Positions 33,706 to 56,630 of a stretch of 64,000 nucleotides of DNA are shown here, piece by piece. Source of the stretch: Candidatus Doudnabacteria bacterium (GTDB lineage Bacteria > Patescibacteriota > Doudnabacteria > UBA920); NCBI GenBank assembly GCA_963837465.1, contig CAWINB010000004.1:202853-266852 (forward strand), read 5' to 3'. Position numbers and translations under genes: made by a program. Every line of letters starts with the position of its first letter. The stretch's first letter is position 1. The notes beneath the pieces were generated by a model, which did no database searches, had not been told where the DNA came from, and saw only the letters and a program-made list of their open reading frames with translations.

Positions 33706-33846
33706 AAAATGAAAAACTTAAAAAAATAATTATTTTAAAAGCTCCCTTGTAATGGGGAGCTTTTTTGTATGAGGTTTTATACGGCCAACCTCGGATAAGT
33801 GTTCTGCCGGTCAATCTTCTTTCACAAAACTACACATCTGTTAGAG

Positions 33847-34239: not shown

Positions 34240-34375
34240 AAAACTTGGTTAAATAATCAAATAACCAAGTTTATTATAATTGGTCTGCCAGTCCTGTAAA
34301 CGGATTAATTTTACTCTTTATAATAAGCCAATTTAGGTATATTATATATAAGTACACTTATTTTTATACTATAAA

Positions 34376-37086: not shown

Positions 37087-37126
37087 ATCATATATTTTTG
37101 TTTAAATTAAAATATTTATTAACCGT

Positions 37127-37657: not shown

Positions 37658-37666
37658 TTTAAAAAA

Positions 37667-37981: not shown

Positions 37982-38002
37982 AAAGATAAAAAATAAAAAT
38001 TT

Positions 38003-38578
38003 ATGGATTATAAGATATTCGTTAGTATAATTTCAGTCATCCTTGTTTTTGTAGGATACGGCCCGTACATTCGGGATATTTTTAAGCGAAAGACAACCCC
38101 ACATACTTTTACTTTTTTGGTTTGGGGTATTTCAAGTTCAATTACTTGGGCTTTACAAGTGATGGGGGGGGCTGGAGTGGGTGCGTGGATAACATTTGCG
38201 GTTTCTGCCGTGTGTATATTTATTTTTTTCCTGTGTCTAAAATATGGTGAAAAAAGTATCGCTATTTCAGACGTTGTATTTTTAATACTTGCCCTGTTTT
38301 CGCTTTTTCTTTGGCTTGTGGTAAAACAGCCAGTCTTGTCAGTAATACTTGTGGTTTTAACGGATATATTAGGTTTTGGGCCAACTATAAGAAAGTCTTG
38401 GAATAAACCTCATTCCGAAACATTATTTACTTGGTGGGTCGCGGCATTTAGGCACGCATTAGGTATTATTGCCTTACAAAAGTTTAATATTTTTACACTT
38501 CTTTATCCAGTAGCCTGGACGATAGCCAACTTAATTTTTTGTCTAATTTTGCTTATAAGACGTAAGCAAATTAAGTAA
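38003..38578 (+). CDS. Polytopic membrane protein (about 6 TM)
   Basis: 191 aa ORF made up almost entirely of hydrophobic helices. Confidence 0.45.
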   Translation: MDYKIFVSIISVILVFVGYGPYIRDIFKRKTTPHTFTFLVWGISSSITWALQVMGGAGVGAWITFAVSAVCIFIFFLCLKYGEKSIAISDVVFLILALFSLFLWLVVKQPVLSVILVVLTDILGFGPTIRKSWNKPHSETLFTWWVAAFRHALGIIALQKFNIFTLLYPVAWTIANLIFCLILLIRRKQIK

Positions 38579-38590
38579 ATTTGTCCTTTT

Positions 38591-38980
38591 ATGGAACGTG
38601 CAGAAACATTAGGCCTTTTGGCCTTTAAAAACTGGGTAGGAGATCGGGGCGAAATCCTTAATACTTCTAGGGATGGAGTTGGGTATGATTGCAAAGTAAA
38701 ATGGAAGGACACGGGCTTGGCCGAAACATACGAAATTAAAGGAACAGCAAAAGTATTGAAAATTCCCGATATGAGCGTCGTTGAATTTGATGAAAGCCAT
38801 AGATTAAAGGCCGATTTTCTTTTTGTGGCCGGAAACGTATTTGAAACTGGTAAAGAAGTGCTGTTTAAAATTCCAAGAGAAGCCTTAACTGAAGAAAATC
38901 TAAAACTGAAACAAACCTATCATATAAGGCTTTTCCAAAACCAAAAGAAAATGGGGAAATACCGCCTTACCAGTAATTAA
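38591..38980 (+). CDS. Stand-alone DUF3883 (NOV C-terminal, restriction-endonuclease-like) domain protein
   Basis: G.RGE...GVGYDCKV...ETYEIKGT matches the remembered DUF3883 signature G..GE...GyDi...yIEVKtT. Confidence 0.5.
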   Translation: MERAETLGLLAFKNWVGDRGEILNTSRDGVGYDCKVKWKDTGLAETYEIKGTAKVLKIPDMSVVEFDESHRLKADFLFVAGNVFETGKEVLFKIPREALTEENLKLKQTYHIRLFQNQKKMGKYRLTSN

Positions 38981-39260
38981 ATTGCTCTGATAAGGCAAAC
39001 CCGTCTGAAATAAAAAATTGACCTCAGATGAGGTCTTTGTGTAGAATGTATATAATATCGGCTTGGCTATTTAGATCATTCCTGACGTTAGCAGTGAACT
39101 CTGGGATAACCCTAATAAGGCCTGATAGATGTCCTTAACCAAACGAGCAAATAGTTTTCCAATTGGTTCTATATGCTCCACCAAAAAAAGCGCCGAGACT
39201 TTTTGGGCGCTTGTTAGTAAAAATAAAAAGTGGTATAATTAAGATAATTAAACTTATCTT

Positions 39261-39875
39261 ATGAGAAAAACATTATTACTTGCAGTTCCTTTAATTGCCT
39301 TGATGGCAGCTGGTTGTTCGTCAAATTCCAACAACAGCCCCCAGAGCAGCGCTTCGCAGTCACCAATTGCAAATTCTCCTAGCGTCCAACAACCATCGAC
39401 ATTGACGGCACCGTCAGCTGCCGAATCAGATTTTAAACAAGCCAGCGACCTAGCAGCACAGCAATGCAGTAATTTACAGCTGGTCGAATATTTCAAAAAT
39501 TTTAAACCAGCAGATAAGGGTAATACTGCCAGTGGTTATAAATTTATTTGCGACGATGGAAAATATGTCTCGGTTGATATAATGAGCACCGGAAACATGC
39601 AAACGAGAAAATTAACTAATCTTTACTATAAACCCATTACATTGGCAGATTGGAAAGTTAATTTAGATTCGGCAAAAAACATAGCTTTACAGAATGGTGG
39701 GAACGATTTTATTAGCAAAAATAGTGGAGCATTTTTGAATGGTGAAATTTTAACCAGCAGAACCGATGAAGGCTTTAAGTGGATTATAGATTTTGAGTCG
39801 CAAAATTATAATTCGGAATTGCAGATATTTATCGATCCGACGACTGGCGCAATACTAGGTCAGAAAACTTACTAA
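39261..39875 (+). CDS. Lipoprotein
   Basis: Signal peptide with a lipobox (LIALMAAGC|SSNSNNS). 204 aa. Confidence 0.6.
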   Translation: MRKTLLLAVPLIALMAAGCSSNSNNSPQSSASQSPIANSPSVQQPSTLTAPSAAESDFKQASDLAAQQCSNLQLVEYFKNFKPADKGNTASGYKFICDDGKYVSVDIMSTGNMQTRKLTNLYYKPITLADWKVNLDSAKNIALQNGGNDFISKNSGAFLNGEILTSRTDEGFKWIIDFESQNYNSELQIFIDPTTGAILGQKTY

Positions 39876-39983
39876 ATCGTATACCTTTAAAATTTCGGTC
39901 TGGGCAGGTTCTTTAAAAAATCGCACCAAACTTAAGCAAAGTTAAAATAATTCTCGCTTACAAATTGGTGGTTTGGCACATGT

Positions 39984-40012
39984 GCTGAGTTCGATCCCCG
40001 GCCGTCCCACCA
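39984..40012 (+). repeat. Partial tRNA-Lys 3' end (att-site remnant or direct repeat of tRNA-Lys copy 1)
   Basis: GCTGAGTTCGATCCCCGGCCGTCCCACCA. The 3' 24 nt match copy 1 with one mismatch. The 5' GCTGAGTTCGA part matches the attP-like core at 26073. Confidence 0.7.
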
Positions 40013-40044
40013 TAGTGTCCTTTTTCGCTTCTGCGACTAACCTG

Positions 40045-40152
40045 AATTCGTTTTTCCAGTTGACCTGTATAACCTTTTCGCTATTCCAGGTTAGGTTTTC
40101 AACCATAGATTTCACCAAACGCCTTTTCCCTTCGGGAGAGGCGTTTTGGTAT
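40045..40152 (+). repeat. Diverged ~105-bp direct repeat of 26255..26360 (LSR C-terminal coding remnant)
   Basis: CATAGATTTCACCAAACGCCTTTTCCCTTCGGGAGAGGCGTTTTGG aligns with CATAGACTTCACCAAACGCCTTTTCCCTTCGGGAGAGGCTTTTTGG. In both places the sequence lies directly 3' of a tRNA-Lys sequence. Confidence 0.7.
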
Positions 40153-44312: not shown

Positions 44313-44641
44313 TGCCTCGGTAGCTCATTGGTAGAGCGTTGCCCTATAAAAACAATCTTTGGGGCCATTCGCCGTAAGGCGGATTGAGAAAAACTGGGTG
44401 AACTCGGGGAAAACTTCATCTCATAAAAAAGATGAAATAATCCCGAGCCAAGTTCCGAAGGGCTTCGCCGGCTGGCGGAAGGTTTCGGAAAAGGTGTAGA
44501 GACTAATAGGTGAGTCCCAACAATAATCCTATACAAGCGCCCAGCCCCGGCCCTTTAATATAAAGAGCCGGGTGATGATATAGTCCAAATTAGCCTCGGA
44601 AGAGGCAAGCGTAGTCAGTTCGATTCTGACCCGAGGCACCA
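44313..44641 (+). tRNA. tRNA-Phe(GAA) interrupted by a 254-nt group I intron after U33
   Basis: The 5' exon 44313..44344 (GCCTCGGTAGCTCATTGGTAGAGCGTTGCCCT) and the 3' exon 44599..44641 (GAAGAGGCAAGCGTAGTCAGTTCGATTCTGACCCGAGGCACCA) join to a canonical cloverleaf with loop CTGAAGA. The intron carries the group I R element (GTAGAGACTAATAGG) and S element (GATATAGTCC). The IGS GGGGC can pair with the exon end GCCCU, with a U.G pair at the splice site. Omega-G is at 44598. Confidence 0.75.
44345..44598 (+). ncRNA. Group I self-splicing intron (no ORF)
   Basis: Conserved P7-flanking R and S elements and P1 pairing. 254 nt, too short for a homing endonuclease. Confidence 0.7.
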
Positions 44642-44702
44642 GATTTTACTAAGTTTTTTAGCGCGGACAGAGTTCCCCTAAAAAAAGCAACAATCCAAAC
44701 AA

Positions 44703-44776
44703 GCGGCCATGGTTCAATGGTAGAACTCCTCCTTGCCAAGGAGGGGATAGGGGTTCGATTCCCCTTGGCCGCTCCA
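44703..44776 (+). tRNA. tRNA-Gly(GCC), CCA encoded
   Basis: Cloverleaf with acceptor GCGGCCA/TGGCCGC, anticodon stem CTCCT/AGGAG, loop TGCCAAG, T-arm AGGGG-TTCGATT-CCCCT. Confidence 0.85.
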
Positions 44777-44930
44777 GTAGCAAACTTTCAGACATTTCAG
44801 ATTTTTTTGCACGGGCTTCGCAGAGCGAAGCCCATTGTGTCGGGGGGACGGAAACGATTTTTTGATTTTTTAAAACAAGGTGCGAGCCGAAGATTTTTTG
44901 TGCAGACGATTTTTTGGGGGGTAAGTCGGG
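44772..44930 (+). repeat. Perfect ~160-bp inverted repeat, copy A (partner 50672..50828)
   Basis: Copy A, from CTCCAGTAGCAAACTTTCAGACATTTCAG to GACGATTTTTTGGGG, is the exact reverse complement of copy B. It starts at the CTCCA 3' end of tRNA-Gly and encodes the penultimate ~50 aa of the LSR. Confidence 0.85.
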
Positions 44931-46329
44931 CGAAAGCGTTATTTCGCCGAGTTTTTCTGCGTCTTGTATCCACTCTTTGAGAGGTGCGAGCCAGATTGTC
45001 CGTTGTTGTTCAAGACGGGCTATTTGCTCCTCCAGCGACTTCTTATCGGACACAAGAACGTTCTTTTGTGTCCGATAGGTTTCCTGCTCAATGTCTTGGT
45101 CTAAATAGGCGTTAAGAAGTCGCTGGAGCTTGCGGTCAATCTCATCTGTCCTTGAACGCAAGTCTTGGACAACCACGGCCACGGAGCGGGCGGAGTCCTT
45201 GTCGTCCTTGTCCGCCATAGCGTTTAGCTGTTCCGCCCACTCTGGTGGCATTACAAAGGTTTTAAGGATAGTTGTAAGCTGGTTGTCCAGTTCCGTGTCC
45301 CTGACGGACAACTGCGAGCAATGGGTGTTTTTCTTAGTGCAACGATAGTATAGGTAATTATGGACATTGCCGTTTTTTTGGTGCTTGGTCTTGGTTTCGG
45401 CGGTTATGCTGCGGCCGCACTCGCCGCACTTGAGCAAACCACAAAACGGCTGGGGCTGGTTCTTGGGATTGTCGCGCTGGTGGCCGCGTTTTTCTAAAAC
45501 CTCCTGTACTTTATCCCAAAGCTGCTTGGTAATGATTGGCTCGTGTCGCCCTTGGTGCAACTCACCTGCGTATTGGAAAAATCCGTAATAAAAAGGGTCG
45601 TTTAAAATATATGTTATCCTGTCCCGTTTTAGGATTTTTCCGCTCTTGGCTACTATGCCCTTATCTTTTAAAAACAAAGAAATGGCCTCAAGGGTATTAC
45701 TACCTTGAGCGTATAGTTCAAACATCTGTTTAATGATTTTGGACTTCCTTTTGTCTATGACAATAGTTTTAGTCCGGCTGTCGTTAAGATAGCCGATAGG
45801 CGCACGGCTGGGATACTCGCCGCGCCGGACTTTTCTCTAAGCCCCCGTTTAGTGTTGTTGCTTAGGTCTAAAATAAACTGGTTAGCCATTCCAAACTCAA
45901 CGCTCATAAGCAGAACGTTATCAGTCGAGCGATAGCTCCGCTCATTGGTTTGGATATGCTGGATTATGCCGCGCTGTAAAAACCAGCTAATCTGCCCGCC
46001 GTCCACGGGGTTGCGGGCGAGCCTGTCCAGTTTCCAGCAGACAAGGCCTTGAGCTTCGCCTTTTTCAATCCGGCTCATCATCTCGGAAAACACCGGACGG
46101 CCTAAAGATTTAGCCGACTGTTTTTCCACAAACTCGCAAGCAATAGATAAGTCCTGCTCTTTTGCCAAAGCCCGCAACTCCGTGAGCTGGGCTTCTATGG
46201 ATAAAACCTGTTTATCCTCAACATCGGTGGACTTGCGGGCGTAGAGAAAATAGTTATCGTTTACCAAAATTGATTTTTTTGCTATCATATAATTGTAGTA
46301 AATTGTTATATATTGATACTAGCAAATAG

Positions 46330-46545
46330 TTGAAGAATATGCAAACAACCCCGAACATTGGGAATAATATAAAAAAATACAGGGGCAAGCTCGGCTTAAC
46401 ACAGGAAGATTTGGTAAAAAAATCAGGCGTAAAATACACCACCCTTTCTAAGATTGAAAGCGGAGCGTCAAAAAAACCGACAGTTCACATAATCGCTAAA
46501 ATCGCTAAAGCCCTCGGCGTTTCTATTGAAAATTTAATAAAATAA
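46330..46545 (+). CDS. XRE-family HTH regulator (possible controller of the R-M operon)
   Basis: 71 aa ORF with the HTH KKYRGKLGLTQEDLVKKSGVKYTTLSKIESG. It lies 5 nt upstream of mod. Confidence 0.7.
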   Translation: MKNMQTTPNIGNNIKKYRGKLGLTQEDLVKKSGVKYTTLSKIESGASKKPTVHIIAKIAKALGVSIENLIK

Positions 46546-46549
46546 ACTT

Positions 46550-48277
46550 ATGAAAAATCCAGAACGCGCGCCGGAAGATAACAAAAAGGCGCAGTTAGAA
46601 AATGAAGTGGCGAGGCTTAACAAAAAAATTGCCAAATACGAGGCCATAGAGTTAAAGCAAAATCGTTTTGGCTTGGTTTGGATTGATGTGCCGGAAGCCT
46701 TTGAAGATGATGTTGAAAACAAACTGCCGATTTTAGAAGAAGTGCCAAAGTTGGCAATAAACAGCAAAGACGGCAAGCCAACACATTTGCTTATTGAGGG
46801 CGACAACTATCACGCTTTAACCTGCTTAAATTATACTCACAAAGACAAAGTTGATGTTATTTACATTGACCCTCCGTATAATACTGGCTCCGCTGATTTT
46901 AAATATAAAGATAAGAGAATTTTAGACAAGTTTCCCGATGGGACTTTAGTGCCAGTTGACCACCCTTTACGCCATAGCTATTGGCTTTCTTTTATGAAAA
47001 AGCGTTTGGAATTGGCTAAAGATATTTTGAAAAAAACCGGAGTTATTTTTATTAGCATAGATGACAATGAACTTGCACAACTAAAATTATTATGTGATGA
47101 AATTTTTGGAACAGAAAACTTCATTGAAACAATTATATGGAAAAAAAGAGCTACTCCTCCAAATGACCGTGAAATTGGAAGAAATCACGAATATATTTTG
47201 TGTTATGGCAAAACCCAAAATGTAAATTTAAATTTGCTTCCAAGAACCGAAGAAGGGATAGCGAGATATAAAAATCCAGACAATGACCCGAATGGAGCGT
47301 GGGCGGCTTCTGATTTAAGCGCAAATGGAAAAGGTGGAAGATTAGTCCAATCTTTAGTATTTCCGATAAAAAACCCATTAAATAAAAAAGAATACTTGCC
47401 GCCTAAAGATAAGTGTTGGCTTTATAACAAAGAAAAAATTGATAAGTTCATATCCGAGGGAAGAATTATTTTTCGTAATAGTGGAGCGCCATTTTTAAAA
47501 AGATATTTGAGTGAAGTTAGACAAGGCCAAACCGCACCGACTATTTGGGTTGACGCAGGCTTTTCTCAAGATTCCGCTCAAGAGATAAAAGATTTGTTTA
47601 ACGGGGAAAATATTTTTGAAAGCCCAAAGCCTTTAAAGCTAATAAGCAGACTTTGTTTTTTGGGTTGCAAAAAAAAGGACGCTGTAATTTTGGATTTTTT
47701 CGCTGGCTCTGGTACAACAGGCCAAGCAATTATGGATTTAAATGAAGAAGACAAGGGAAGCAGGCGGTTTATTCTGATTACCAATAATGACGAAATAACA
47801 AACGGGGGAAAGCATAAAATAATGACAGATATTTGTTACCCAAGAATAAAAAAGGTTATTAAAGGTTATAATTCAAAAAAGGGCTTGGGTAATTCCATAA
47901 AGTATTTCAAAACGGCTTTCGTTGGGAAAAATAACATATTGAAAGCTGATGACGCAGATAAAATAGAATTAGCTCACAATGCAGGCGGTATGTTGGCTAT
48001 TGCAGAAAATACTTTTGATCAAGTTGAACAGAATAATTATTGGCAAATTTTTGAAAGTAACAAACAATATACAGCCGTATATTTTAGAGAAGAATTTGGC
48101 AAGTTTGATGAATTTATAGAAAAGGTTAAGAAACTAAAAAAACCGGCTGTTGTTTACATTTTTAGCTGGGAAAAAGAATTTGAATTTAACGAATTTGAAG
48201 AAGACAAAAACATAAAAATTAAAACTATTCCCCAGCCGATTTTAGAAATTTACAAACAGATTTATAACCTTGTTTAA
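46550..48277 (+). CDS. mod: Type III restriction-modification methyltransferase (Mod), beta-class N6-adenine/N4-cytosine MTase
   Basis: Motif IV DVIYIDPPYNTG comes before motif I ILDFFAGSGTTGQA. The 575 aa size and the position directly upstream of res support the call. Confidence 0.85.
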   Translation: MKNPERAPEDNKKAQLENEVARLNKKIAKYEAIELKQNRFGLVWIDVPEAFEDDVENKLPILEEVPKLAINSKDGKPTHLLIEGDNYHALTCLNYTHKDKVDVIYIDPPYNTGSADFKYKDKRILDKFPDGTLVPVDHPLRHSYWLSFMKKRLELAKDILKKTGVIFISIDDNELAQLKLLCDEIFGTENFIETIIWKKRATPPNDREIGRNHEYILCYGKTQNVNLNLLPRTEEGIARYKNPDNDPNGAWAASDLSANGKGGRLVQSLVFPIKNPLNKKEYLPPKDKCWLYNKEKIDKFISEGRIIFRNSGAPFLKRYLSEVRQGQTAPTIWVDAGFSQDSAQEIKDLFNGENIFESPKPLKLISRLCFLGCKKKDAVILDFFAGSGTTGQAIMDLNEEDKGSRRFILITNNDEITNGGKHKIMTDICYPRIKKVIKGYNSKKGLGNSIKYFKTAFVGKNNILKADDADKIELAHNAGGMLAIAENTFDQVEQNNYWQIFESNKQYTAVYFREEFGKFDEFIEKVKKLKKPAVVYIFSWEKEFEFNEFEEDKNIKIKTIPQPILEIYKQIYNLV

Positions 48278-48279
48278 TT

Positions 48280-50664
48280 ATGCCAGCATTTAACCTTTTA
48301 CCATTCCAAAAGACAACGATTGATGATTTAAACGAAGCCTTTTTAAGACTTTGGAAAAAACAAGGCAGGCAGTTGCCTTTGGTTTTTAAATCGCCAACTG
48401 GAAGCGGTAAGACTTTGACCGCCGCCCATTTTATAAAAGGACTTAATCATTTGCCGCAATGGAAAATTGATAAAGCATTTATTTGGATTACTTTTAGCGA
48501 TGACTTGGCAATGCAGAGCAAGGATAAGTTCAAAGACTATTTTGAAAACAATCTAGAAAATGCTCTGTTAACTGTAAACGATATAAACAGAGGCAAACTA
48601 TACGAAAATGATATTTTATTTTTGAACTGGCAAAAGGTTGTGCAGGATAATGCCGCAACCCGAAAACTTAAATTACGCAAACCCAAAGACGAAAGATTTA
48701 AAAAAGAAACGGGCAGTTATTTTGAAGATGTAATGGCAGAAACTAAAAAGGCTGCTCGAGAAATTATTTTGTTTGTTGATGAAGCCCACACCCACAAATC
48801 AACAGAGCTGGCGCAGGAGATTATTGACCTTATTAACCCTAAAATAATTGTGCATATAACCGCAACACCAGATGAAAAAGACGAACTGACGGCAAGGCGG
48901 TTAAAAAGTTTTGTAGAAGTAGCCCGAGAACAGGTTGTTGATGAGGGTTTAATAAAAGAAAAAATTTTAGTGCAGACTGAGGAAGACTTAAAAAAATACA
49001 AGGGCAAAGATTTAGATGAAGTCCTTTTGACACTGGGAATGGAAAGGCGGGAAGAGCTGGCAAATGAACTAAAAGCATTGGGTAAGGATATAAACCCGCT
49101 AATGCTTATTCAGTTGCCCAATGATGATAAAGAGCTTATAGCCAAAGGTGATAAGACTAAAGAAGAAGTTGTGAGCCAATTTTTAGCCTCTAAGGGCATA
49201 AAAAGCCAGCACATAGCCAAATGGTTTGACGGCAAAAAAGACAACTTGGACTTTATAGCCGACAATGACAGCAAGGTTGATTTTATGCTTTTCAAACAGG
49301 CCGCAGGCACGGGCTGGGACTGTCCCCGTGCGAGTGTTTTGGTTATGTTTAGGGAAATAAAAAAGGAAACTTTTTACACTCAAACAGTTGGCCGCATTTT
49401 AAGAATGGCCGAACCACAGGCAAAAGAAGATTATAAGAACAGTCCGAATTTAAGAACCGGCTATTTATATACCAACTATAAGCGTAGCCAAGTTGAACTG
49501 CCCGATTTAAAGAAAAATGAAATTCCAAGCCAGCACGCTTACAGGAAACAAGGTATTAAAAATATTAAATTGCAATCAGCCTATATTTCACGCATTGACT
49601 ATGGCGACATTCCAGCCTCGTCCAAATTCCAAGAGAGCTTTGTGAACTCAATGAACTCCTATTTTGGAATTACCAAAACAGACTTGCAAGCAATGGGGAA
49701 AGCCGAAGCGAAGCTAAAAAAGGCGGGCGTTGATTTAAGCCGCAAGCTAACCAACAGCATTATTGCCAATGCCAAGTTTGAAGATTTTGACCAAATGGCT
49801 TATGACTTTAAAAAGAGAGGCATTGATGTTGAGCTGGAAATATCAACCAATGATGTAGAAAAAACTTTTAATTATTTTTGCCTAATGCTCTTAAAAGAAC
49901 AAACAGATGAGCAGGCAAAATATACCAATGTCGCCCGTGCTTGGGGCGTGTTTAAATCAGCTATCCGTATTTGGTTTCAGGCTGTGTTAAACACAGACAG
50001 TAATTATTATTACAGGGTTTTTGTTAAGGATATACAAAAGGGGGCGGCCAGCAAATTCAGACCGGCAATAACCAAAGCCTTAATTGATTTTAAGCCTATT
50101 GCTCAAAGCATACTAAAAGACCGGAAGAAAAAACAGGAAGAAGCAGAAGCTCCGATTTTTGAAATTTTAGAGCAATACGGTTTTACATCTGATTACGAAG
50201 AACTGCCCCAAAAACTTTGCGCTTTGGATAAATGTTTTGTGCTTAAAGATTATAAAGGCAAAGAGAATGAATTGAATTTTATTAAATATCTTGAGGGCAA
50301 AGGCAAACAGATTGACTGGTGGTTTAAAAACGGCAATCAAGGCAAAGAATATTTTGCGATTAAGTATTTTAACAGCGTGGACGGCAAAGAAGCCCTGTTT
50401 TACCCCGACTTCATAATACGCTTTAAAAGTGGCGGGATAGGGATTTTTGACCCTAAAAAAGACCAGACGGCAACAGACCCCGAAACGGCCGACAAAGCCA
50501 AAGCGTTGGCGTTGAAACTAAATAAGTTAGGCAAGGTCTATGTTGGCGGTATAGCTGTTTTTGAAAATGGCGTTTGGAATTATAATAGCTCTGAAAAATA
50601 CAAATACCAAAAAGGTAAGATGAACCAAGATAAAAATTGGCAACCTCTTGAAAATTTATTTTAG
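48280..50664 (+). CDS. res: Type III restriction enzyme Res subunit (SF2 helicase-like with a C-terminal nuclease region)
   Basis: Walker A FKSPTGSGKT and a DEAH box LFVDEAHT. 794 aa, with its start 3 nt after the mod stop. Confidence 0.8.
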   Translation: MPAFNLLPFQKTTIDDLNEAFLRLWKKQGRQLPLVFKSPTGSGKTLTAAHFIKGLNHLPQWKIDKAFIWITFSDDLAMQSKDKFKDYFENNLENALLTVNDINRGKLYENDILFLNWQKVVQDNAATRKLKLRKPKDERFKKETGSYFEDVMAETKKAAREIILFVDEAHTHKSTELAQEIIDLINPKIIVHITATPDEKDELTARRLKSFVEVAREQVVDEGLIKEKILVQTEEDLKKYKGKDLDEVLLTLGMERREELANELKALGKDINPLMLIQLPNDDKELIAKGDKTKEEVVSQFLASKGIKSQHIAKWFDGKKDNLDFIADNDSKVDFMLFKQAAGTGWDCPRASVLVMFREIKKETFYTQTVGRILRMAEPQAKEDYKNSPNLRTGYLYTNYKRSQVELPDLKKNEIPSQHAYRKQGIKNIKLQSAYISRIDYGDIPASSKFQESFVNSMNSYFGITKTDLQAMGKAEAKLKKAGVDLSRKLTNSIIANAKFEDFDQMAYDFKKRGIDVELEISTNDVEKTFNYFCLMLLKEQTDEQAKYTNVARAWGVFKSAIRIWFQAVLNTDSNYYYRVFVKDIQKGAASKFRPAITKALIDFKPIAQSILKDRKKKQEEAEAPIFEILEQYGFTSDYEELPQKLCALDKCFVLKDYKGKENELNFIKYLEGKGKQIDWWFKNGNQGKEYFAIKYFNSVDGKEALFYPDFIIRFKSGGIGIFDPKKDQTATDPETADKAKALALKLNKLGKVYVGGIAVFENGVWNYNSSEKYKYQKGKMNQDKNWQPLENLF

Positions 50665-50671
50665 TTTATTG

Positions 50672-50828
50672 ACGTTACCCCAAAAAATCGTCTGCACAAA
50701 AAATCTTCGGCTCGCACCTTGTTTTAAAAAATCAAAAAATCGTTTCCGTCCCCCCGACACAATGGGCTTCGCTCTGCGAAGCCCGTGCAAAAAAATCTGA
50801 AATGTCTGAAAGTTTGCTACTGGAGTCC
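50672..50828 (-). repeat. Inverted repeat copy B
   Basis: Exact reverse complement of 44772..44930. Confidence 0.85.
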
Positions 50829-50873
50829 CTGTATCAGGACGCACGCACCCATTTTATCAAAAATTCCTGACTT
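50680..50873 (+). pseudogene. Orphan LSR C-terminal fragment (...PKKSSAQKIFGSHLVLKNQKIVSVPPTQWASLCEARAKKSEMSESLLLESLYQDARTHFIKNS*)
   Basis: The in-frame translation of repeat copy B on the plus strand is identical to the tail of the LSR at 44658 up to the CTGGAG junction. After the junction it continues with a different 15-aa tail. Confidence 0.6.
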
Positions 50874-51118
50874 CCGATAGGCCAAAACAGGGTCAAAAGG
50901 GGGGTCGTTTACCCCTTCATTCAGGTAGTCACTAGCCATTTTCAGAGTGACTACCCTCCGGTCTTAAAATAGCCCTGCTGCTATTGGCTTTCCTGCTCCG
51001 GCACTACCCAAAATCCAATGCCGACTTCACTCCGCTACAGTGTGCTCACTTCCGCTCCGTGATTGCCCCTCGGCCTTCTCTCCCGTCCGTCTTTTGACTT
51101 TACTCGTTGGTGGGGGTG
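50824..51118 (+). repeat. Near-perfect ~295-bp inverted repeat, copy C (partner 53928..54220)
   Basis: The reverse complement of 50824..51118 matches 53928..54220 except for a ~10-nt indel near one end. The sequence runs from CCCCCACCAACGAGTAAAG to GGTGCGTGCGTCCTGATACAGGGA. Confidence 0.85.
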
Positions 51119-51196
51119 TGTGAATTGAAACAAAAAAATTGCGCTCAAGGCCGCAAGGCCGAGCGCGAAAAAAATAAAAACTTGAATTTCTAACAA

Positions 51197-51988
51197 TCAA
51201 TTTAAATCATTTGATTTCTTCCATCGTTTATCAAAGACAGCTTTTAAAGCTGGCAAAAAGATTGATACCGTTTGTGTCGGCAGGAATATAACGAATGACT
51301 CTTTATTCGCAAAATCTTTAATGCCATAGCCAACTATCACCAAAGCGTTATCTGCTATTATGTATCTGTCGTGTAGCTCGTAAAACTTATCGTATTTTTT
51401 TAATTTTATGTTTTTAAATTCGCGTTTAAATCTTTTTAAGTTATTCTGAAAATTTGTTAAATTTCTTTGTTCCTCATTTCCTAATTGAGAAGATAAAAAT
51501 TTTATTTTGGTTTTTTTACCAAACTTTTCTAGTGTAAAAAATGTTCCATTACCATAGTATGGGTCAACAATACGCAAATCTCCTTTTAACATTTTAATAA
51601 TATTTGGAAGTTCTCTGTTTGAGTCTGTCCAAGCATTAACGCCGCTTAAAAATACTATTTTGTTTGTTGGTATATCAGGATTTTCTACTTTATTTTTATC
51701 TATCCAAGCAGGAAACCAATATTTCTTCTTATTGCGACCCCTGCCAACAATTTTAACCTTGACCACATCATTTTCTAAGAGAGGCTCCATCAATGATGTT
51801 AAGTTATTTGCTTTAATTTTTTTACCAGCACCCTCATTAAGTAAATGGGTAAGTTGCGATGAAGATATCACAGCGTCAAATTCCTCATCTTTCAATAATT
51901 TACATACCCGAAAAGCAAAACTCCCTTTGCGAGTGAGTTGTTTCGAATTTTCTATTTTATTAAAAACAGTCTTTTTTGCAATAACCAT
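51197..51988 (-). CDS. Hypothetical protein, 263 aa (cargo of the inverted-repeat cassette)
   Basis: AT-rich, basic ORF with no confident motif. Confidence 0.4.
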   Translation of the reverse strand: MVIAKKTVFNKIENSKQLTRKGSFAFRVCKLLKDEEFDAVISSSQLTHLLNEGAGKKIKANNLTSLMEPLLENDVVKVKIVGRGRNKKKYWFPAWIDKNKVENPDIPTNKIVFLSGVNAWTDSNRELPNIIKMLKGDLRIVDPYYGNGTFFTLEKFGKKTKIKFLSSQLGNEEQRNLTNFQNNLKRFKREFKNIKLKKYDKFYELHDRYIIADNALVIVGYGIKDFANKESFVIFLPTQTVSIFLPALKAVFDKRWKKSNDLN

Positions 51989-52035
51989 ATTATATTTTTA
52001 TGTAAAGCAGAACTTTTAATATCTCACTTTTTCAG

Positions 52036-52257
52036 TTAGACAAAATATTTGTACTTTCCGTCTTCTTTTTTTCTCATCACCCGCTCTCTCCTTAGTAAAT
52101 AAAGTAAATTAACCCTGATGTCTTCAGGTTTTTCGTTGTGGCCAAATCTGTCTTTCAGTTCTTTTCTGATTTCCTCTGCTATCTTTGGCTGCTTACTAAT
52201 TACTTTCATAATTTTTTCTGCAACACTTGGTTTTGATTTATTTGTTTTCATATTCAT
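52036..52257 (-). CDS. Small basic hypothetical protein (C-terminal ...GKYKYFV)
   Basis: 73 aa ORF. Its C-terminal motif is shared with the next ORF. Confidence 0.35.
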   Translation of the reverse strand: MNMKTNKSKPSVAEKIMKVISKQPKIAEEIRKELKDRFGHNEKPEDIRVNLLYLLRRERVMRKKEDGKYKYFV

Positions 52258-52260
52258 AAT

Positions 52261-52617
52261 TTATCTTTTAAAATATTTATAAGTGCCTTTTTGAGGCTTG
52301 TTTCTCCCAAGAACTTTTTTTCGAACCAATAATATTAAAGAGGGCATTAGCGAAGTGGTTGGCTTTACAACCCCCTCATCGCGCAGTTTTTTTTGTATTT
52401 CAGATATATCCTTAGGGTCTTTAAAAAACCCGTCTTTAACCAGTGTATATATTTCCCCAGTCAAACCAGAGAACTGGCTATGCTCTAAACCCTGTTTTCC
52501 AGTCCGTTTAGCCAAAATTGCCGACTTTTGTTGTTTAATGCCTACTGATTGTTTCAGTTCAACCAAAAGCGATTCGATTTCTTCAATGATATCTTTGCTA
52601 TTTCTTACTTTTTGCAT
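52261..52617 (-). CDS. Small basic hypothetical protein (C-terminal ...GTYKYFKR)
   Basis: 118 aa ORF, 3 nt from the previous ORF. It appears paralogous to that ORF at its C-terminus. Confidence 0.35.
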   Translation of the reverse strand: MQKVRNSKDIIEEIESLLVELKQSVGIKQQKSAILAKRTGKQGLEHSQFSGLTGEIYTLVKDGFFKDPKDISEIQKKLRDEGVVKPTTSLMPSLILLVRKKVLGRNKPQKGTYKYFKR

Positions 52618-52966
52618 ATTAGGTTTTATAATTTAATTAATAATTAAGTATAACGAATAGTTAAATAATATTAGTTGACCACCGTAAACATCTGAATTTA
52701 AAGCTGATTATGTCTTTTCCTATTGAACGTATAATATTACAAAATGGAATAGTTGTCAAGAATTAAATAGTAATAAACTAAAAAAAGCCTTATTTAAAGG
52801 CTTTAATGCTATTTTAGTTTATATCTTTAACTGAATAGGGATATAAAAACTATTTTAAAGTATATTCAGCTTGAGAAAGGAACGTTAATCAAACCGGACG
52901 ATTTTTAAGGGAGCTTAGAAGCTCTCTTTGCCCGCGCAACGGGAGGGTTGGGGCAAGGACAAAACC

Positions 52967-53833
52967 TTAATGCAAAATCGTTTTCGGCATATCGTCCTTC
53001 GGCGACTTCCATATCGGCTCAAAAATCGCCTCCGGCTTGGAGATTGAATAGTTTTTATCAGACGTAAACAGGAACATATTACTGCCCTGCTGGTTTGAGT
53101 TGGCCACCTTGGAGGCGATTCGCAAGTTTTCGCTCCGCGTTTCGTTAGGGGTTATAGTAATGACCCGAAAACGGGTGAAGCCTAAAGAATCTTTGAGCCG
53201 TTCTTCCCGCCCCCACCGCCAGTAAAGTTTTAGTTTGTTTACAAATCTTTCCTCGGTCATCGTCCCTCTATCGGCTTCAAGGAAGACGGGATATTTATAT
53301 TCCTTGGTATCCAAGACAAAGAAAGCGTCCGGCACGAGTTCGGGATTTTGGCCGTGCCGCCCCCGCAATGCGGACTTTAAGTCATAGCCCTGTAACCACC
53401 GGTGGAGCTTGAGGTCGTCTCGTTTCCGTATCGCCAATGTAAGACAAGTTCTAAACTGCGAAATCATCAGGGCGTGGGCAATCAAGGGCAGGGAGCGTTC
53501 AATCTCACGCATACGGCGCAAAATCCCTTGGAACTGTTCCGAGTCTCCGTAGACAACTTCCGCTCCTTTCTTGCCGAGGGAATAGATGATGTGGGAGGAA
53601 GGAAGCTTTGAATGGCTCTGGTTCTTAGGCCTGTCCAAGAATCCCAAGTCAAACATAGCGGCAAGACGGCGAAGGAAGTTACGTCTGCCTCCGGGGTGCA
53701 GGGCAAGGATTTGCTCGGTGTTGAGGAAACGATATTCTCCCAACTCTTGGAGCAGTTCCATATCCCGTGCCTGTAGCTGGAGGGGGTCTTTTACCTCTCT
53801 CCTGACTAACCTTTTTCTTAAAGCGGTAGCCAT
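52967..53833 (-). CDS. Replication-relaxation (Replic_Relax)-like family protein, GC-rich
   Basis: An N-terminal wHTH-like region is followed by a conserved ...FFVLD...YPVFLEADRGTM motif, as remembered for PF13814. GC content is far above that of neighbouring genes. Confidence 0.5.
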   Translation of the reverse strand: MATALRKRLVRREVKDPLQLQARDMELLQELGEYRFLNTEQILALHPGGRRNFLRRLAAMFDLGFLDRPKNQSHSKLPSSHIIYSLGKKGAEVVYGDSEQFQGILRRMREIERSLPLIAHALMISQFRTCLTLAIRKRDDLKLHRWLQGYDLKSALRGRHGQNPELVPDAFFVLDTKEYKYPVFLEADRGTMTEERFVNKLKLYWRWGREERLKDSLGFTRFRVITITPNETRSENLRIASKVANSNQQGSNMFLFTSDKNYSISKPEAIFEPIWKSPKDDMPKTILH

Positions 53834-53927
53834 AAAAGAATCTGTTATAATTCCATTATAGCAGGTTCCAAGACCCCCTCTGTCCGAGGCCTTCTCGACC
53901 CGTCCGCTACCTTATTTATCTGTTTCA

Positions 53928-54220
53928 CACCCCCACCAACGAGTAAAGTCAAAAGACGGACGGGAGAGAAGGCCGAGGGGCAATCACGGAGCGGAAGTGA
54001 GCACACTGTAGCGGAGTGAAGTCGGCATTGGATTTTGGGTAGTGCCGGAGCAGGAAAGCCAATAGCAGCAGGGCTATTTTAAGACCGGAGGGTAGTCACT
54101 CTGAAAATGGCTAGTGACTACCTGAATGAAGGGGTAAACGACCCCCCTTTTGACCCTGTTTTGGCCTATCGGAAGTCAGGAATTTTTGATAAAATGGGTG
54201 CGTGCGTCCTGATACAGGGA
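53928..54220 (-). repeat. Inverted repeat copy D
   Basis: Reverse complement of 50824..51118. It overlaps the 3' end of the truncated LSR gene. Confidence 0.85.
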
Positions 54221-54852
54221 CTCCAATCGGAACTTTCAGCCCTTTGACGCACCCTGTCAAAGGGTTTTCCGTAAGTAAATTGGGGCTTTTGGTCAATTAG
54301 TTTAGAGTTCTGAAGTAAGAAACCCAACAGCTCCCGTTTTTCATCGGGTTTCGCATTTTCATACAGTATTGCCGCATTTTTAGCGAGTTCTAAAGTTTTT
54401 ACGCCAAATTGGTAATAATCAATGTCCGCATAAGTATATTTGCTAATCAGCGTATCCAAGTCTTTAATTTTTTTAGAATACTCGGCAAACCTTTGGTTAT
54501 AAAATTCATCGCTAATCTTCCTGTCCAGCCTGTCCTCATACATAACGCTAAGCCGATTTTGTAGCTTGGCCTTTTCCGCTTCCAGCTTTTCCCGTGTTAC
54601 ATCCTCTGTATTGCGCTTAAAATACAAAGACTGCTTAAGACCCTCTGCCACATAATCAACAGCGTCCTGGGGCATTTTGTGCATTATGTGTAGTGAATTT
54701 AGTATATCCTCATCAAAGACAGTTTCATTTACGGCCTTTTGCATACAGTTAGTGCCAAACTTGGTGCAATGGTAATAAATAAATTCCTTGCCGGATTTTT
54801 TAACAACCTTTTCTGCCGTTACTGTGCGGCCACATTCGCCGCAAGCCAGCAA
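54166..54852 (-). pseudogene. 5'-truncated large serine recombinase (zinc ribbon and coiled coil only)
   Basis: The ORF begins directly in the zinc ribbon (CGECGR...YYHCTKFGTNC) and is followed by a coiled coil. No resolvase or recombinase domain lies upstream. Confidence 0.75.
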
Positions 54853-54951
54853 ACCCAGGCTTAAAAGTTAGTCCTAATTCCATAACCCCATTTATTTTTG
54901 ATATTGCTGACTCAAAAAACCTTTCTAGCATTGAAAGGCAGCTAATTAAGC

Positions 54952-56013
54952 TTGGCGAAAAACTACAAATTGAACTTATTGAAAACAAGGCTAAGAATCT
55001 TAAAAAGTATGCCTACTAAAACACAACACAGATATCCAAAGGTTTTTATACGCAGTAAAAACGAGCTGGCTAAAAGATTTGAGTCACCTGGGTTAACAAA
55101 AACCCAAGCTCTGGAGCTTATCAACGATGTTGTTAGTAATTTTAATAACTACTGGCGAGACAGCAAACACTCTCAGCCGAAAAAAAATAAATACGTTAGG
55201 AACGCTAAAGGTAAACCTCTAGGTAGACTCCTTAAATTGATAGACAAGAAGTTGTTAGCGCCCCACGACAAACTTATACCGGGATTTATTTTTGGCGGCG
55301 TATCCGGAAAAAGTCACATGGACGCCGCCTACTATCTTTTGGGTAAACAGCGGGAACGAACGCTACTAGCTTTGGATATTGGAAGATTTTTTGAGCAAAT
55401 ATCCGAGGATAGAGTATTTCACTTTTTTTATAATAAGGCCCAATGCAGTAAAAAAGCCGCGACCCTGTTGGCTAGGTTGTGTTGCGTAGAGGAAGGACCC
55501 AAAGGTAATGGCACTAATAAAAAAGTTTTAGCTCGCGGGTTTGCTACATCAACCAGATTGGCAGCTTGGTGCAATCTAGACACATTCTTAAAACTACATT
55601 GGCTAGCAAAAAATAATCTAAAACGGCACGACCCCCGACTGGCTATATTTGTTGATGACATTGGTATTTCTGCCAGCAGAATCTCACGAGATAATATGCT
55701 TACACTCCAAAAAGAAGTTGAAGACATTCTTGTAAATTCTGACCGTAATCAAAAATTACCTGTAAATCCTGAAAAAACTTTTATTTACTCCTATGAAGAA
55801 GGCATAGAACACTTGGGACTTAATCTTGGCAGGAACAAACTTTCATTCGGAAGCAAGACTCTTTCCCGTAAAGCCAAAGTAAACCACTTGCTAAAAATTA
55901 GTACTAAAAAATCAGAAAAAATAAAGTTGCGTATAAAAAGAAAGTCATATTTCGCTTACCGCGAGCAAATTAACAAACTTAATAAACAGGCAGCCAAGTT
56001 GCCACTAGCATGA
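54952..56013 (+). CDS. Compact reverse transcriptase (RT domain only)
   Basis: RT motif A LALDIGRFFEQI, motif B' LARGFATSTRLAAWCN and motif C AIFVDDIGIS (an xxDD variant). There is no endonuclease, maturase or other fused domain. 353 aa, or about 334 aa from the second Met. Confidence 0.7.
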   Translation: MAKNYKLNLLKTRLRILKSMPTKTQHRYPKVFIRSKNELAKRFESPGLTKTQALELINDVVSNFNNYWRDSKHSQPKKNKYVRNAKGKPLGRLLKLIDKKLLAPHDKLIPGFIFGGVSGKSHMDAAYYLLGKQRERTLLALDIGRFFEQISEDRVFHFFYNKAQCSKKAATLLARLCCVEEGPKGNGTNKKVLARGFATSTRLAAWCNLDTFLKLHWLAKNNLKRHDPRLAIFVDDIGISASRISRDNMLTLQKEVEDILVNSDRNQKLPVNPEKTFIYSYEEGIEHLGLNLGRNKLSFGSKTLSRKAKVNHLLKISTKKSEKIKLRIKRKSYFAYREQINKLNKQAAKLPLA

Positions 56014-56630
56014 TTTCAGACAAAAACAACTTAACACCATACGGCGGACCCAAGCGTTCTGAAGACGGACCTTTTCACGAATTATTTTTAATGCTTGGGA
56101 AAATTCCTGCCCAAAAAAGGCCTAAGCTTATACTGATAGATAAATTTCAGATGCTCATTTGTGATGGTGAAAGAATGACACTAAACACCACAATGAGGCC
56201 ACACGGCACAATTACTGGCCTGAGCTTTGACAGAGGCGAAGTGCTTGAGCTATTTGCCAAAGTAGAATTTTTAATAAACACCCTTGTTTTAAGTTATATA
56301 AAACCTACTGGAGGGAGCTTTGATGACTTTAATAAATTACTCGACAGTACGGACCTGTTTTCAAAAATAAAAGTTTTGATGGAGTGGGGTGTATTAAGTC
56401 CTAAATTAGGTAGTAAACTAATCTCAATAAAAAAGGTGCGCAATAGTTTCGCACACAGATGGTCGGAGGATGATGTGCTGTTTGAAGGTAAACCGCTCAA
56501 TAAGGATGCTGTTTTTGAAAAATTTGTAAAAGAAATTACTACTATTTGGATGGAGTTAATAAAAATTAGCCAATCGATCCAGCCTGACATTAAGGAATTG
56601 CTGAAAAAGTACGCCGTGCCGACAGAATAA
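56010..56630 (+). CDS. Small HEPN-like protein translationally coupled to the RT
   Basis: Its start overlaps the RT stop by ATGA. The C-terminal KKVRNSFAHRWSEDD fits the HEPN Rx4-6H motif (R-N-x-x-x-H). 206 aa. Confidence 0.5.
   Translation: MISDKNNLTPYGGPKRSEDGPFHELFLMLGKIPAQKRPKLILIDKFQMLICDGERMTLNTTMRPHGTITGLSFDRGEVLELFAKVEFLINTLVLSYIKPTGGSFDDFNKLLDSTDLFSKIKVLMEWGVLSPKLGSKLISIKKVRNSFAHRWSEDDVLFEGKPLNKDAVFEKFVKEITTIWMELIKISQSIQPDIKELLKKYAVPTE

Follow-up and report, generated by a model that had tools for sequence, protein, structure and literature searches.

A recombinase gene located between inverted copies of its own site is a hallmark of inversion systems such as Hin/Gin and Flp/FRT. 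In the integration-dependent immunity of mycobacteriophages, attP lies inside the repressor gene and integration removes a degradation tag. For the canonical large serine recombinases (LSRs), sites of ~50 bp suffice, neither attP x attP nor attP x attL recombination takes place, and the zinc-ribbon motif is found 5 bp further inward in attB than in attP (PMC3783163).

The locus described here lies in the window, the whole 64,000-nucleotide stretch of Candidatus Doudnabacteria DNA that was analysed. Next to tRNA-Gly(GCC) we noticed a perfect inverted repeat (denoted a/a') that includes the 3' end of an LSR gene. This repeat probably represents part of an attachment site, namely the P' arm and the 5-bp core, that belongs to an integrative, plasmid-like LSR element of 9,444 bp at the CCA end of tRNA-Gly(GCC); the element carries two inverted copies of attP. 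No description of such a layout was found in the literature searched.

Two inverted repeats and the limits of the element

The original prediction described an exact inverted repeat of ~160 bp (44772-44930 and 50672-50828) that starts at the CCA end of tRNA-Gly and bounds the element. The repeat is real, with 100% identity and 0 mismatches, and it does start with the final 5 nt (CTCCA) of the tRNA, but its length is 148 bp (44772-44919 and 50678-50825), the sequences diverging immediately beyond both limits of the pair. A 44-nt piece of it occurs twice in the window, with 0.00 occurrences expected (100 shuffles). Also borne out was the presence between the arms of a frameshifted LSR gene, an XRE regulator, mod and res (ORFs, Pfam and PADLOC; Table 1), as was the finding that both copies encode the same LSR segment, residues 457-506 (PKKSSAQKIFGSH...SESLLLE). 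The breakpoint between res and copy B is clean: since res ends 13 nt before copy B, the latter has no LSR body upstream and is an LSR 3' end only.

The claim that the repeat bounds the element, with copy B as its end, had to be given up. Copy B abuts a second perfect inverted repeat, p'/p, of 300 bp (50821-51120 and 53926-54225), the two having a 5-nt core in common, and because of this second repeat the right end of the element is at 54221-54225 and not at 50825. With attL at 44772-44776 and attR at 54221-54225, the element therefore spans 44777-54220 (9,444 bp). The order is tRNA-Gly, a, the LSR-XRE-mod-res segment enclosed by a/a', the joint a'·p', the segment of four genes including Replic_Relax enclosed by p'/p, then p and host DNA. 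CTCCA is all that the four junctions have in common, and the middle junction has this core in the orientation (TGGAG) opposite to that at attL and attR.

Copy B in fact belongs to an intact attP inside the element, of which it forms the P' arm. The internal 443-bp block is the reverse complement of 53926-54225 joined to 44777-44919, with 0 mismatches. Its plus strand reads ...SESLLLE|SLYQDARTHFIKNS*, an LSR 3' end with its native tail and no body, and its flank is similar to the related locus L001. The circle junction and the internal attP are identical in sequence and indistinguishable.

Table 1. Coordinates of features at the tRNA-Gly locus (positions in the window)
Feature	Position	Strand	Evidence or remark
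LSR C-terminal ORF: Recombinase domain, Zn ribbon, coiled coil, C-terminal domain	44658-45725	-	PF07508 2.5e-12, PF13408 1.1e-09
tRNA-Gly(GCC), attB B arm; core CTCCA 44772-44776 at attL	44703-44776	+	ARAGORN; Rfam 70.3 bits; four-junction comparison
Repeat copy A (a): 5-nt core + 143-nt P' arm	44772-44919	.	minus strand encodes LSR residues 457-506
LSR N-terminal ORF, serine-recombinase catalytic domain (YARKSTD motif)	45755-46288	-	Pfam Resolvase 9.5e-21
1-nt deletion (GAGAAAAG run) breaking the LSR frame	45830-45837	-	three-frame translation; alignment with L004, L085, L002
XRE-type HTH regulator, divergent from LSR	46330-46545	+	Pfam HTH_3 8e-17
mod, Type III R-M methyltransferase	46550-48277	+	Pfam N6_N4_Mtase 4.7e-38; PADLOC MTase_III 9.3e-98
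res, Type III R-M restriction/helicase subunit	48280-50664	+	Pfam ResIII 1.2e-19; PADLOC REase_III 8.3e-17
Internal intact inverted attP, 443 bp	50678-51120	.	complete inverted copy of the joined attP
Parts of internal attP: a'; core TGGAG; P arm p'	50678-50825; 50821-50825; 50826-51120
Segment y: four genes (263 aa, 73 aa, 118 aa, Replic_Relax)	51197-53833	-	ORFs
263-aa gene of segment y, PDC-S05-like	within 51197-53833	-	PADLOC PDC-S05 8e-13
Replic_Relax gene	52967-53833	-	Pfam Replic_Relax 4.1e-25
P arm (p) + core CTCCA 54221-54225, making attR	53926-54225	.	exact reverse complement of 50821-51120
B' side of target: hairpin then TTTT, 54240-54268	54226-54852	-	sequence

The LSR element at the CCA end of tRNA-Gly carries the Type III R-M system as cargo, in agreement with the original prediction. 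The PADLOC (MTase_III) and Pfam (N6_N4_Mtase) matches of mod are those of a Type III Mod; res begins 3 nt past the end of mod, and its domain matches span the helicase part only (residues ~5-411). The XRE gene adjoins the LSR gene in the related loci L001, L004 and L086 and is located in the y segment of L056. Beyond attR we observed a retron-type reverse transcriptase and what is left of another LSR, older than that of the element. This remnant, within 54226-54852 on the minus strand, retains the Zn ribbon only (Pfam Zn_ribbon_recom 1.8e-06; BLASTP 41% identity over 58 aa to P0001) and reads toward the tRNA site.

The recombinase and its attachment site

The recombinase (506 aa plus tail) has the domains of an LSR: a catalytic domain with the nucleophile serine, and Recombinase, zinc-ribbon and coiled-coil domains. 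Alignment of relatives showed that Y16, R18, K19, S20 and T21 of the catalytic domain are near-invariant, and the closest solved structures (PDB) are the A118 and SPbeta integrases. The frame break falls downstream of the catalytic domain. If this 1-nt deletion is genuine and not an error of sequencing, the copy in the window may be inactive; the gene was presumably once active, and the LSR probably catalyses integration of the element.

Conserved LSR coding stops at 44772, and 44771-44658 is read-through antisense to the tRNA, so that the protein ends in a tRNA-coded tail (RPRGIEPLSPPWQGG...) as against the native tail (SLYQDARTHFIKNS*) of 14 codons located in the P arm. When the tails of 120 relatives were sorted by regex, 74 were tRNA-coded, 11 native and 35 unclassified, several of the last fitting one class or the other by eye. 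An AlphaFold2 model of P0007 predicted long helices (residues 347-395 and 400-427) after the zinc-ribbon strands, and placed the native tail in a confident terminal helix (residues 499-517, mean pLDDT ~88-92).

Repeat copy A contains a 9-bp hairpin (44813-44833), which shows covariation in 91 relatives, and a distal motif, GGTGCGAGCC (44879-44888), found at -110 in 57 of 92 arms. On its P' side the conserved duplicated site measures 99-174 nt; its P side measures 147-306 nt in loci with a repeated P arm. With its conserved hairpin and distal motif this is a long site and not a simple one of ~50 bp. Since canonical sites are ~50 bp and canonical LSRs recombine attP with neither attP nor attL, the canonical mechanism leaves the long duplicated site unexplained. 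In 53 elements, the sequence TCGAAC is located 22 nt from TGG in the P arm versus 18 nt for the tRNA T-loop. This inward shift is 4 nt, not 5, and fits the published one in direction and size (PMC3783163); TCGAAC is a candidate recognition motif, and no shifted motif pair of this kind was detected on the P' and B' sides.

Recurrence among relatives and a direct junction pair

We surveyed 160 loci, to which L001 and L085 were added from contig look-ups. In 92 loci the copy linked to the LSR lies directly at the 3' end of a tRNA, with ~8 further tRNA- or tmRNA-like ends, and the targets of the family comprise 15 tRNA species. The inverted LSR 3' end recurs upstream in 63 of the 91 related Patescibacteria loci in which the LSR abuts a tRNA, and in 26/33 tRNA-abutting loci whose upstream sequence reaches 6 kb or more. 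The LSRs of these relatives are only ~50-60% identical to that of the window, yet they are accompanied by the same orphan copy and P arm. Examined by eye, all orphan flanks run into the conserved P arm except three that abut a tRNA (L043, L078 and L184), which represent the opposite orientation. Comparison across related genomes found both orientations relative to the tRNA, but not mixed: ~100 loci have the one and 3 the other.

Of 45 loci with sufficient flanking sequence, 14 have the double inverted repeat seen in the window, among them L060 (OY970358.1, 881,652 bp, recorded as a whole chromosome), where both repeats are 100% identical; in 29 of the 45 no second P arm was found within reach. 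The joint a'·p' codes for an uninterrupted, conserved LSR C-terminus, which in L001, L003, L085, L086, L087, L139 and L147 is attached to full-length LSRs. In two of these, L086 and L147, each copy has its P arm, i.e. both attP copies are intact. Arms best match their own partner in 93 of 106 cases, indicating that the copies are homogenised within elements. One subfamily has an orphan with its own conserved 9-11-nt insertion and flanks identical to those of the coding copy, and the cargo of the two unique segments varies independently across loci. None of the contigs recovered was a closed circle with both attP copies. Two inverted copies of attP are the pattern of the family, found in most of its relatives within Patescibacteria.

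A direct attL-versus-attP pair was found for one identical LSR. Positions 1-1248 of L085 and 1678-2925 of L004, which come from different samples, are 100.000% identical over 1,248 bp (LSR) and split exactly after CTGGAG, tRNA-Gly following in L004 and the P arm in L085, where a Replic_Relax homologue comes after the LSR-attP junction. The short common core, the hybrid attL and attR and the breakpoint at the core are what attP x attB recombination would be expected to leave.

Explanations for the inverted copies

The recombinase ORF of this LSR family reads through attP; because of this, its last ~50 conserved codons lie in the P' arm. The element holds two complete attP copies, inverted relative to each other. 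We propose that the LSR-linked attP recombined with the tRNA 3' end by a crossover inside CTCCA, generating attL and attR. The tRNA is left intact and the LSR ORF is fused to tRNA-antisense sequence, and the other attP copy remains intact within the element. The excised circle would carry two inverted ~445-bp repeats between two unique segments.

Inversion in situ, in which the LSR or homologous recombination flips the LSR/R-M segment (a-a'), the Replic_Relax segment (p'-p) or both, is compatible with this anatomy and would add a function to it, namely a switch that rejoins the LSR body to its native tail and alters the sequence downstream of the tRNA. Formally the repeat is a substrate for inversion, as the original prediction stated, and the LSR gene is flanked by inverted copies of its own site, as in Hin/Gin and Flp/FRT. 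The occurrence of both orientations in the family and the homogenisation of arms within elements point the same way, as does the predicted terminal helix of the native tail, which the tRNA-coded tail (RPRGIEPLSPPW...) would replace. Inversion nevertheless seems to us possible but rather unlikely: a ratio of ~100:3 is not a mixed population, the gene order of L085 fits an excised joint or use of the other attP and not a flip of the LSR segment alone, and attL x attP is not recombined by canonical LSRs (PMC3783163).

That each unique segment has its own perfect inverted repeat and varies in cargo independently of the other might suggest two independent TIR elements side by side, X (a-LSR/R-M-a') and Y (p'-Replic_Relax-p), each with a palindromic joint. 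This is improbable, as what comes after the orphan a' is in no case host DNA but the P arm or, in three loci, a tRNA; a middle core reading TGGAG between two CTCCA cores is at odds with a crossover dinucleotide that repeats on the same strand; and a'·p' is a continuous LSR C-terminus, found on full-length LSRs in seven loci. An accident at this locus, either the recent duplication or gene conversion of the original prediction or the remains of a second LSR element that lost its body by deletion, would account for the perfect 148-bp identity and for the clean breakpoint 13 nt past the res stop codon. The family survey contradicts it and makes it highly improbable: the same arrangement occurs in no fewer than 63 independent loci, which differ in tRNA and cargo, the P arm accompanies the orphan save in the three loci with a tRNA, and the subfamily orphan combines its own insertion with the flanks of the coding copy. 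Among relatives, many contigs assembled from short reads stop 50-52, 115-123 or 137-138 nt inside the P arm; these distances resemble assembler word sizes and show that the spot is difficult for assemblers. Even so, a collapsed or chimeric join of integrated and excised forms is hardly credible, since the res|a' and p'|y junctions are unique sequences that must be present in reads and the layout recurs in assemblies of many projects, among them L060.

Comparison with known systems

The element with two inverted attP copies resembles several known systems in part. Phage-type large serine integrases (A118/LI, SPbeta, Bxb1, phiC31) have the same Resolvase, Recombinase and zinc-ribbon domains and likewise a long helical region after the zinc ribbon, here predicted; they also share a short common core, and their recognition motif is more distant from the centre in attP than in attB (PMC3783163), a position that the candidate motif TCGAAC would match here. 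Unlike them, the family found here targets the CCA end of tRNA genes with an ORF that crosses attP, and its LSR has, in the predicted model, an extra C-terminal domain of ~65 residues encoded by the att site. Further differences are the second, inverted attP and the length of the conserved site, which takes up 112-174 nt on the P' side and, in cases of a repeated P arm, 147-306 nt on the P side as against ~50 bp in all; no recombination directionality factor was identified. Hin/Gin-type invertases are ~190 aa with a C-terminal HTH and act at ~26-bp inverted sites; the LSR domains, the larger recombinase (506 aa plus tail) and the longer repeats (148 and 300 bp) do not agree with such an identity.

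The circular form, which we infer from the integrated element and the L086 and L147 contigs, would resemble the yeast 2-micron plasmid (Flp/FRT), with two long identical inverted repeats, each containing a recombinase target, and with the recombinase gene in one of the two unique segments between them and a replication-type gene in the other. The 2-micron plasmid uses a tyrosine recombinase (Flp) for copy amplification, whereas here a serine recombinase is found in a bacterial host with chromosomal integration. As in mycobacteriophage immunity, a gene that crosses attP yields a protein with a different C-terminus upon integration, the repressor there and the recombinase itself here. Genomic islands with tyrosine integrases likewise insert at tRNA 3' ends, leave the tRNA intact and form layered insertions at one tRNA, to which the older LSR remnant and the retron-type reverse transcriptase beyond attR correspond here, but their direct repeat comprises tens of nt of the tRNA, as against the 5 nt CTCCA of this serine recombinase element. 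In SSV1-type archaeal integrases the recombinase gene also contains attP and integration alters the product, as seen here in the L004/L085 pair; there a tyrosine recombinase gene is split into two large parts, whereas the serine recombinase here only exchanges a 14-codon tail for tRNA-antisense codons, and the element keeps a spare copy of the 3' end internally.

Layout of the integrated element and its surroundings

An exact inverted repeat of 148 bp begins at CTCCA, the last five nucleotides of tRNA-Gly(GCC), and a 44-nt piece of it is found twice in the window, against 0.00 expected in shuffles. The inverted repeat placed by the original prediction at the tRNA-Gly CCA end is thus real, with limits (44930, 50672 and 50828) that were too wide, since the sequences part just beyond 148 bp. 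Gene and domain matches agree with the genes assigned to the interval between the arms, namely a frameshifted large serine recombinase (LSR), an XRE gene, mod and res, and copy B is indeed an orphan LSR 3' end, its plus-strand reading continuing into the conserved native LSR tail SLYQDARTHFIKNS and stop. The repeat is not the boundary of the element. An inverted copy of the sequence that flanks copy B on the outside lies at 54.2 kb, and the two form a perfect 300-bp inverted repeat that had been missed and that has a 5-nt core in common with copy B.

The junction sequences give the layout tRNA - a - x - a'·p' - y - p - B', in which a and a' are the 148-bp arms (core and P' arm), p' and p the 300-bp arms (P arm and core), x the segment with LSR, XRE, mod and res, and y a segment with ORFs of 263, 73 and 118 aa and Replic_Relax. 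The element spans 9,444 bp, and its internal a'·p' block is an intact attP, the exact reverse complement of the attR-attL joint expected upon excision. G+C is 33-40% over 46-53 kb and higher in most flanking sequence. As a fragment of a tRNA or other RNA gene, the flank of copy B was rejected, having no Rfam match and matching the P arm of relatives. The 263-aa ORF of y matches a candidate defence family, so the element may carry a second defence gene besides the restriction-modification (R-M) system. A search of IMG/VR for a viral origin gave no relative above 35% identity.

Features of the element, its attachment sites and its surroundings (window positions)
Feature	Position	Strand	Remarks
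LSR 3'-end remnant	within 1800-2296	plus	~130 codons
tRNA-Leu(UAA)	2210-2296	opposite to remnant	adjoined by the remnant
tRNA-Lys(UUU), two copies	14183-14258; 26149-26224		92% identical
Tyrosine integrase	24563-25723		between the tRNA-Lys(UUU) copies
Another LSR, 501 aa	26160-27665	minus	overlaps 3' end of second tRNA-Lys
Resolvase/recombinase fragment	27662-28429
Direct repeat, 76 nt	26285-26360; 40076-40151		87%
tRNA-Phe(GAA)	44314-44645		anticodon loop split by intron, ~253 nt (~44346-44598)
tRNA-Gly(GCC)	44703-44776
Element	44777-54220
attL	44772-44776		junction ...GGCCGCTCCA/GTAGCAAACTTTCAG
a (copy A)	44772-44919
LSR Recombinase + Zn-ribbon ORF	45725-44658	minus
LSR Resolvase ORF	46288-45755	minus
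XRE-type HTH gene			between repeat arms
Type III mod			between repeat arms; PADLOC MTase_III 9e-98
res			between repeat arms; ResIII; REase_III 8e-17
a' (copy B, orphan)	50678-50825
Internal attP (a'·p')	50678-51120		junction ...GATACAGGGACTCCA/GTAGCAAACTTTCAG
p'	50821-51120
263-aa ORF	51197-51988		PADLOC PDC-S05, 8e-13
Replic_Relax gene	52967-53833
p	53926-54225
attR	54221-54225		junction ...GATACAGGGACTCCA/ATCGGAACTTTCAGCCC...
Empty tRNA-Gly site, predicted			...GGCCGCTCCAATCGGAACTTTCAGCCC
Hairpin in a and a'	44813-44833; 50764-50784		9 bp
Stump of a different LSR	54166-54852	minus	Zn ribbon only; reads towards tRNA site
Retron-type reverse transcriptase	54952-56013		PADLOC RT_VI 7e-29
206-aa ORF			beyond attR, in 54166-56630
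Transposase genes	57504-58424; 60104-60562		Mutator family and IS4/5 DUF4096 type, downstream of the island

Compared with three relatives, the window LSR lacks one nucleotide in a GAGAAAAG run (45830-45837), which splits its reading frame. Either the gene is truly damaged, in which case the protein may be inactive, or the homopolymer was misread in sequencing. The 148-bp repeat encodes residues 457-506 of the protein once its frame is restored. Repeat identity as a mark of an active element is unsupported, since the LSR ORF is intact in 17/17 loci with identity below 95% and in 24/26 with at least 98%.

Beyond attR lies a hairpin followed by TTTT, and 54166-56630 is an older layer at the same hotspot, tRNA-Gly evidently having been hit more than once. 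On the other side, the intron of tRNA-Phe(GAA) belongs to group I (Rfam RF00028, 71.9 bits), and ARAGORN finds the tRNA gene only once the exons are joined; L004, the closest integrated relative, matches this stretch between its tRNA-Val and tRNA-Gly. Further away, 26149-40151 is probably a separate island, with direct and not inverted repeats; its G+C is ~30-44% between 27 and 40 kb and falls to a minimum of 30-35% at 31-38 kb. The LSR remnant at tRNA-Leu(UAA) is a decayed element of the window LSR's family, 2020-2180 and 44804-44965 being 80% identical in nucleotides.

The LSR family, its tails and its targets

The LSR has 6,377 relatives at E <= 1e-10, mostly from Patescibacteria. Their conserved sequence stops at ...LE, precisely the tRNA boundary, beyond which most continue in tRNA-antisense codons such as GIEP... 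or GFEP.... Sorting the tails of 120 relatives by regular expression alone gave 74 tRNA-antisense, 11 native (..LY..ARTHFIKNS) and 35 unclassified, several of which could by eye be assigned to one of the two classes. The DNA past the native tail of copy B resembles the flank of a full-length LSR in the related locus L001. For P0007, a relative with a native tail, AlphaFold2 was run on an alignment with only ~14 native tails; it puts the tail within the confidently modelled last helix (residues 499-517) of a small C-terminal domain encoded almost wholly by the att region; according to this model, the helix would be replaced by a proline- and glycine-rich tRNA-coded tail.

We surveyed 160 related loci from species-representative genomes and metagenomes, with L001 and L085 added through contig look-ups. 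At 92 loci the LSR-linked arm adjoins the 3' end of a convergent tRNA, and about eight more adjoin tRNA- or tmRNA-like ends; 15 tRNA species are targeted. An inverted orphan LSR 3' end lies upstream in 63/91 tRNA-adjoining loci, and in 26 of the 33 whose upstream sequence reaches 6 kb or more. The repeat arms measure 99-174 nt (median 137), extend 3-7 nt into the tRNA (mode 5), and are identical in 16/52 loci and at least 98% identical in 26/52. Visual inspection shows a conserved P arm (TGGtg..T.T.Tac.ac...gctcGAAC.TaTTTta...aAAA) after every orphan, except in three cases that adjoin a tRNA. The second pair p'/p is seen in 14 of the 45 loci with enough flank, including L060, recorded as a whole chromosome, where both repeats stand at 100%. 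In 29/78 contigs the assembly ends 1-145 nt into the P arm, at distances clustering at 50-52, 115-123 and 137-138 nt. Such distances resemble the word sizes of assemblers and would be expected of a P arm that is repeated in those genomes too. The element explains frequent assembly breaks beside tRNA genes. Judged from these loci, the double-inverted-attP layout is a family trait.

Cargo varies in both x and y, and the smallest x segments (1,413-1,450 nt) are the LSR alone. In L004 (107-1357), whose LSR is 84% identical and which occupies the same tRNA-Gly, a tRNA-synt_2 gene comes after the XRE gene where the window has mod/res, so the LSR-adjacent cargo is exchangeable; no orphan copy lies within this contig. 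The paralogues P0015 and P0018 come from one 868-kb contig.

Anatomy of the attachment site

TCGAAC lies 22 nt from the core TGG in the P arm, and the T-loop TCGAAC lies at 18 nt in the tRNA arm. In the A118 system, the zinc-ribbon motif of attB is 5 bp nearer the centre than that of attP, and only attP x attB recombines without the directionality factor (PMC3783163). The direction and size of the TCGAAC shift fit an LSR that reads the tRNA T-loop, which would explain easy switching between tRNAs. The B' side shows no conservation between loci.

In 93/106 arms the best match is the arm's own partner, and LSRs with this architecture are 45-67% identical to that of the window. Ten orphans of one subfamily carry a conserved 9-11-nt insertion, GGC[TTTGAATTTTT]GAACC, in a distal TCGAAC motif (GGCTCGAACC) ~110 nt from the core, with flanks ~100% identical, and coding and orphan copies there differ almost only by this insertion, which is identical in two independent assemblies (L031 and L132). 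The shortest repeat class (112-116 nt) starts exactly at the distal motif. A G+C-rich 9-bp hairpin, 36-56 nt from the core and within the LSR coding region, is kept across 91 related arms by compensatory changes, some of which alter amino acids; an average of 7.0 of the 9 pairs is formed, and shifted controls reach 3.0-4.2. These features suggest that the orphan copy is selected and not decaying. To our knowledge, arm homogenisation, the orphan insertion, the distal motif and the hairpin have no role in the canonical LSR mechanism.

Two further roles for the repeat were considered and rejected. As a substitute tRNA terminator, the hairpin in a has its T-run before it on the tRNA strand and an A-run after it on the LSR strand; no T-run follows it on either strand, in the window arms or the 91 related arms. 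An LSR promoter inside a' is contradicted by minimal relatives, where the promoter (..TGCTATAAT) lies just interior to a', within the unique segment. In seven such relatives a ~100-nt leader, possibly a regulatory RNA, separates this strong promoter-like site from the LSR start and shows the long-range pairing AATGGCCGTC...GGCGGCCATT; the leader is absent from the window, which has XRE-mod-res in its place.

Recombination and the second attP

L085 (1-1248) and L004 (1678-2925), from two different samples, are 100.000% identical and part exactly after CTGGAG. Beyond it, L004 enters tRNA-Gly in the tRNA-Val / intron-bearing tRNA / tRNA-Gly context of the window, and L085 enters a P arm, a homologue of the window's Replic_Relax gene (52967-53833) and a TraG-like gene, a gene order that matches the one expected for the excised joint. 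Two other loci have a P arm on each copy and both attP sites intact, as expected for the free form, and in three more the orphan adjoins the tRNA and the LSR reads away from it. Three configurations therefore occur in nature, that of the window being by far the commonest; no closed circle was recovered.

On the best supported reading, the LSR uses an attP that spans the 3' end of its own gene to insert a small plasmid-like element at the CCA end of a tRNA, and a second, inverted attP in the element remains intact once integrated, the 148-bp repeat serving as P' arm of both. A folded single-stranded circle, in which a:a' and p:p' pairing would yield a duplex attP, was considered but not retained as an explanation for the product seen, because double-strand cleavage would cap the chromosome ends with hairpins. 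For the second attP, integration through either site, or flipping, would switch the LSR end between the native tail and tRNA-coded residues, which is plausible because the native tail lies in the modelled terminal helix of P0007. The second site may instead permit 2-micron-like isomerisation of the free circle, or may act as a regulatory or accessory site beside the LSR promoter.

A bolder reading, which we consider rather unlikely, casts these elements as integration-competent bacterial equivalents of 2-micron-type plasmids, with the second attP as a working part. If so, that site would be kept identical by recombination while bearing selected features of its own, and the element would exist in the chromosome in two states, with the native terminal helix or with a tRNA-antisense fusion, so that the recombinase C-terminus would record, and possibly control, integration state. 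Accessory sites, of which we know none for large serine recombinases, would then be provided by the long arms with their hairpin and distal TCGAAC (~110 bp from the core).

Mobile elements of Patescibacteria are poorly described, and the present family is a concrete, recurrent vehicle for defence genes there, the examples in this element being Type III R-M and a PDC-S05-like gene. In a search of open-access full text, neither a double inverted attP nor this LSR family was found described; the tycheposon preprint gives LSRs no more than a brief mention. The family offers a testable case of a recombinase C-terminus that depends on integration state. The value of large serine recombinases as tools lies in their simplicity, their one-way action and their ~50-bp sites, a picture from which this family departs. 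Its gene extends across its own attachment site, which is long and structured; it targets the T-loop and CCA end, near-universal features of tRNAs, in 15 tRNA species; and conservation of a second inverted copy spans a phylum-level group of bacteria with small genomes.
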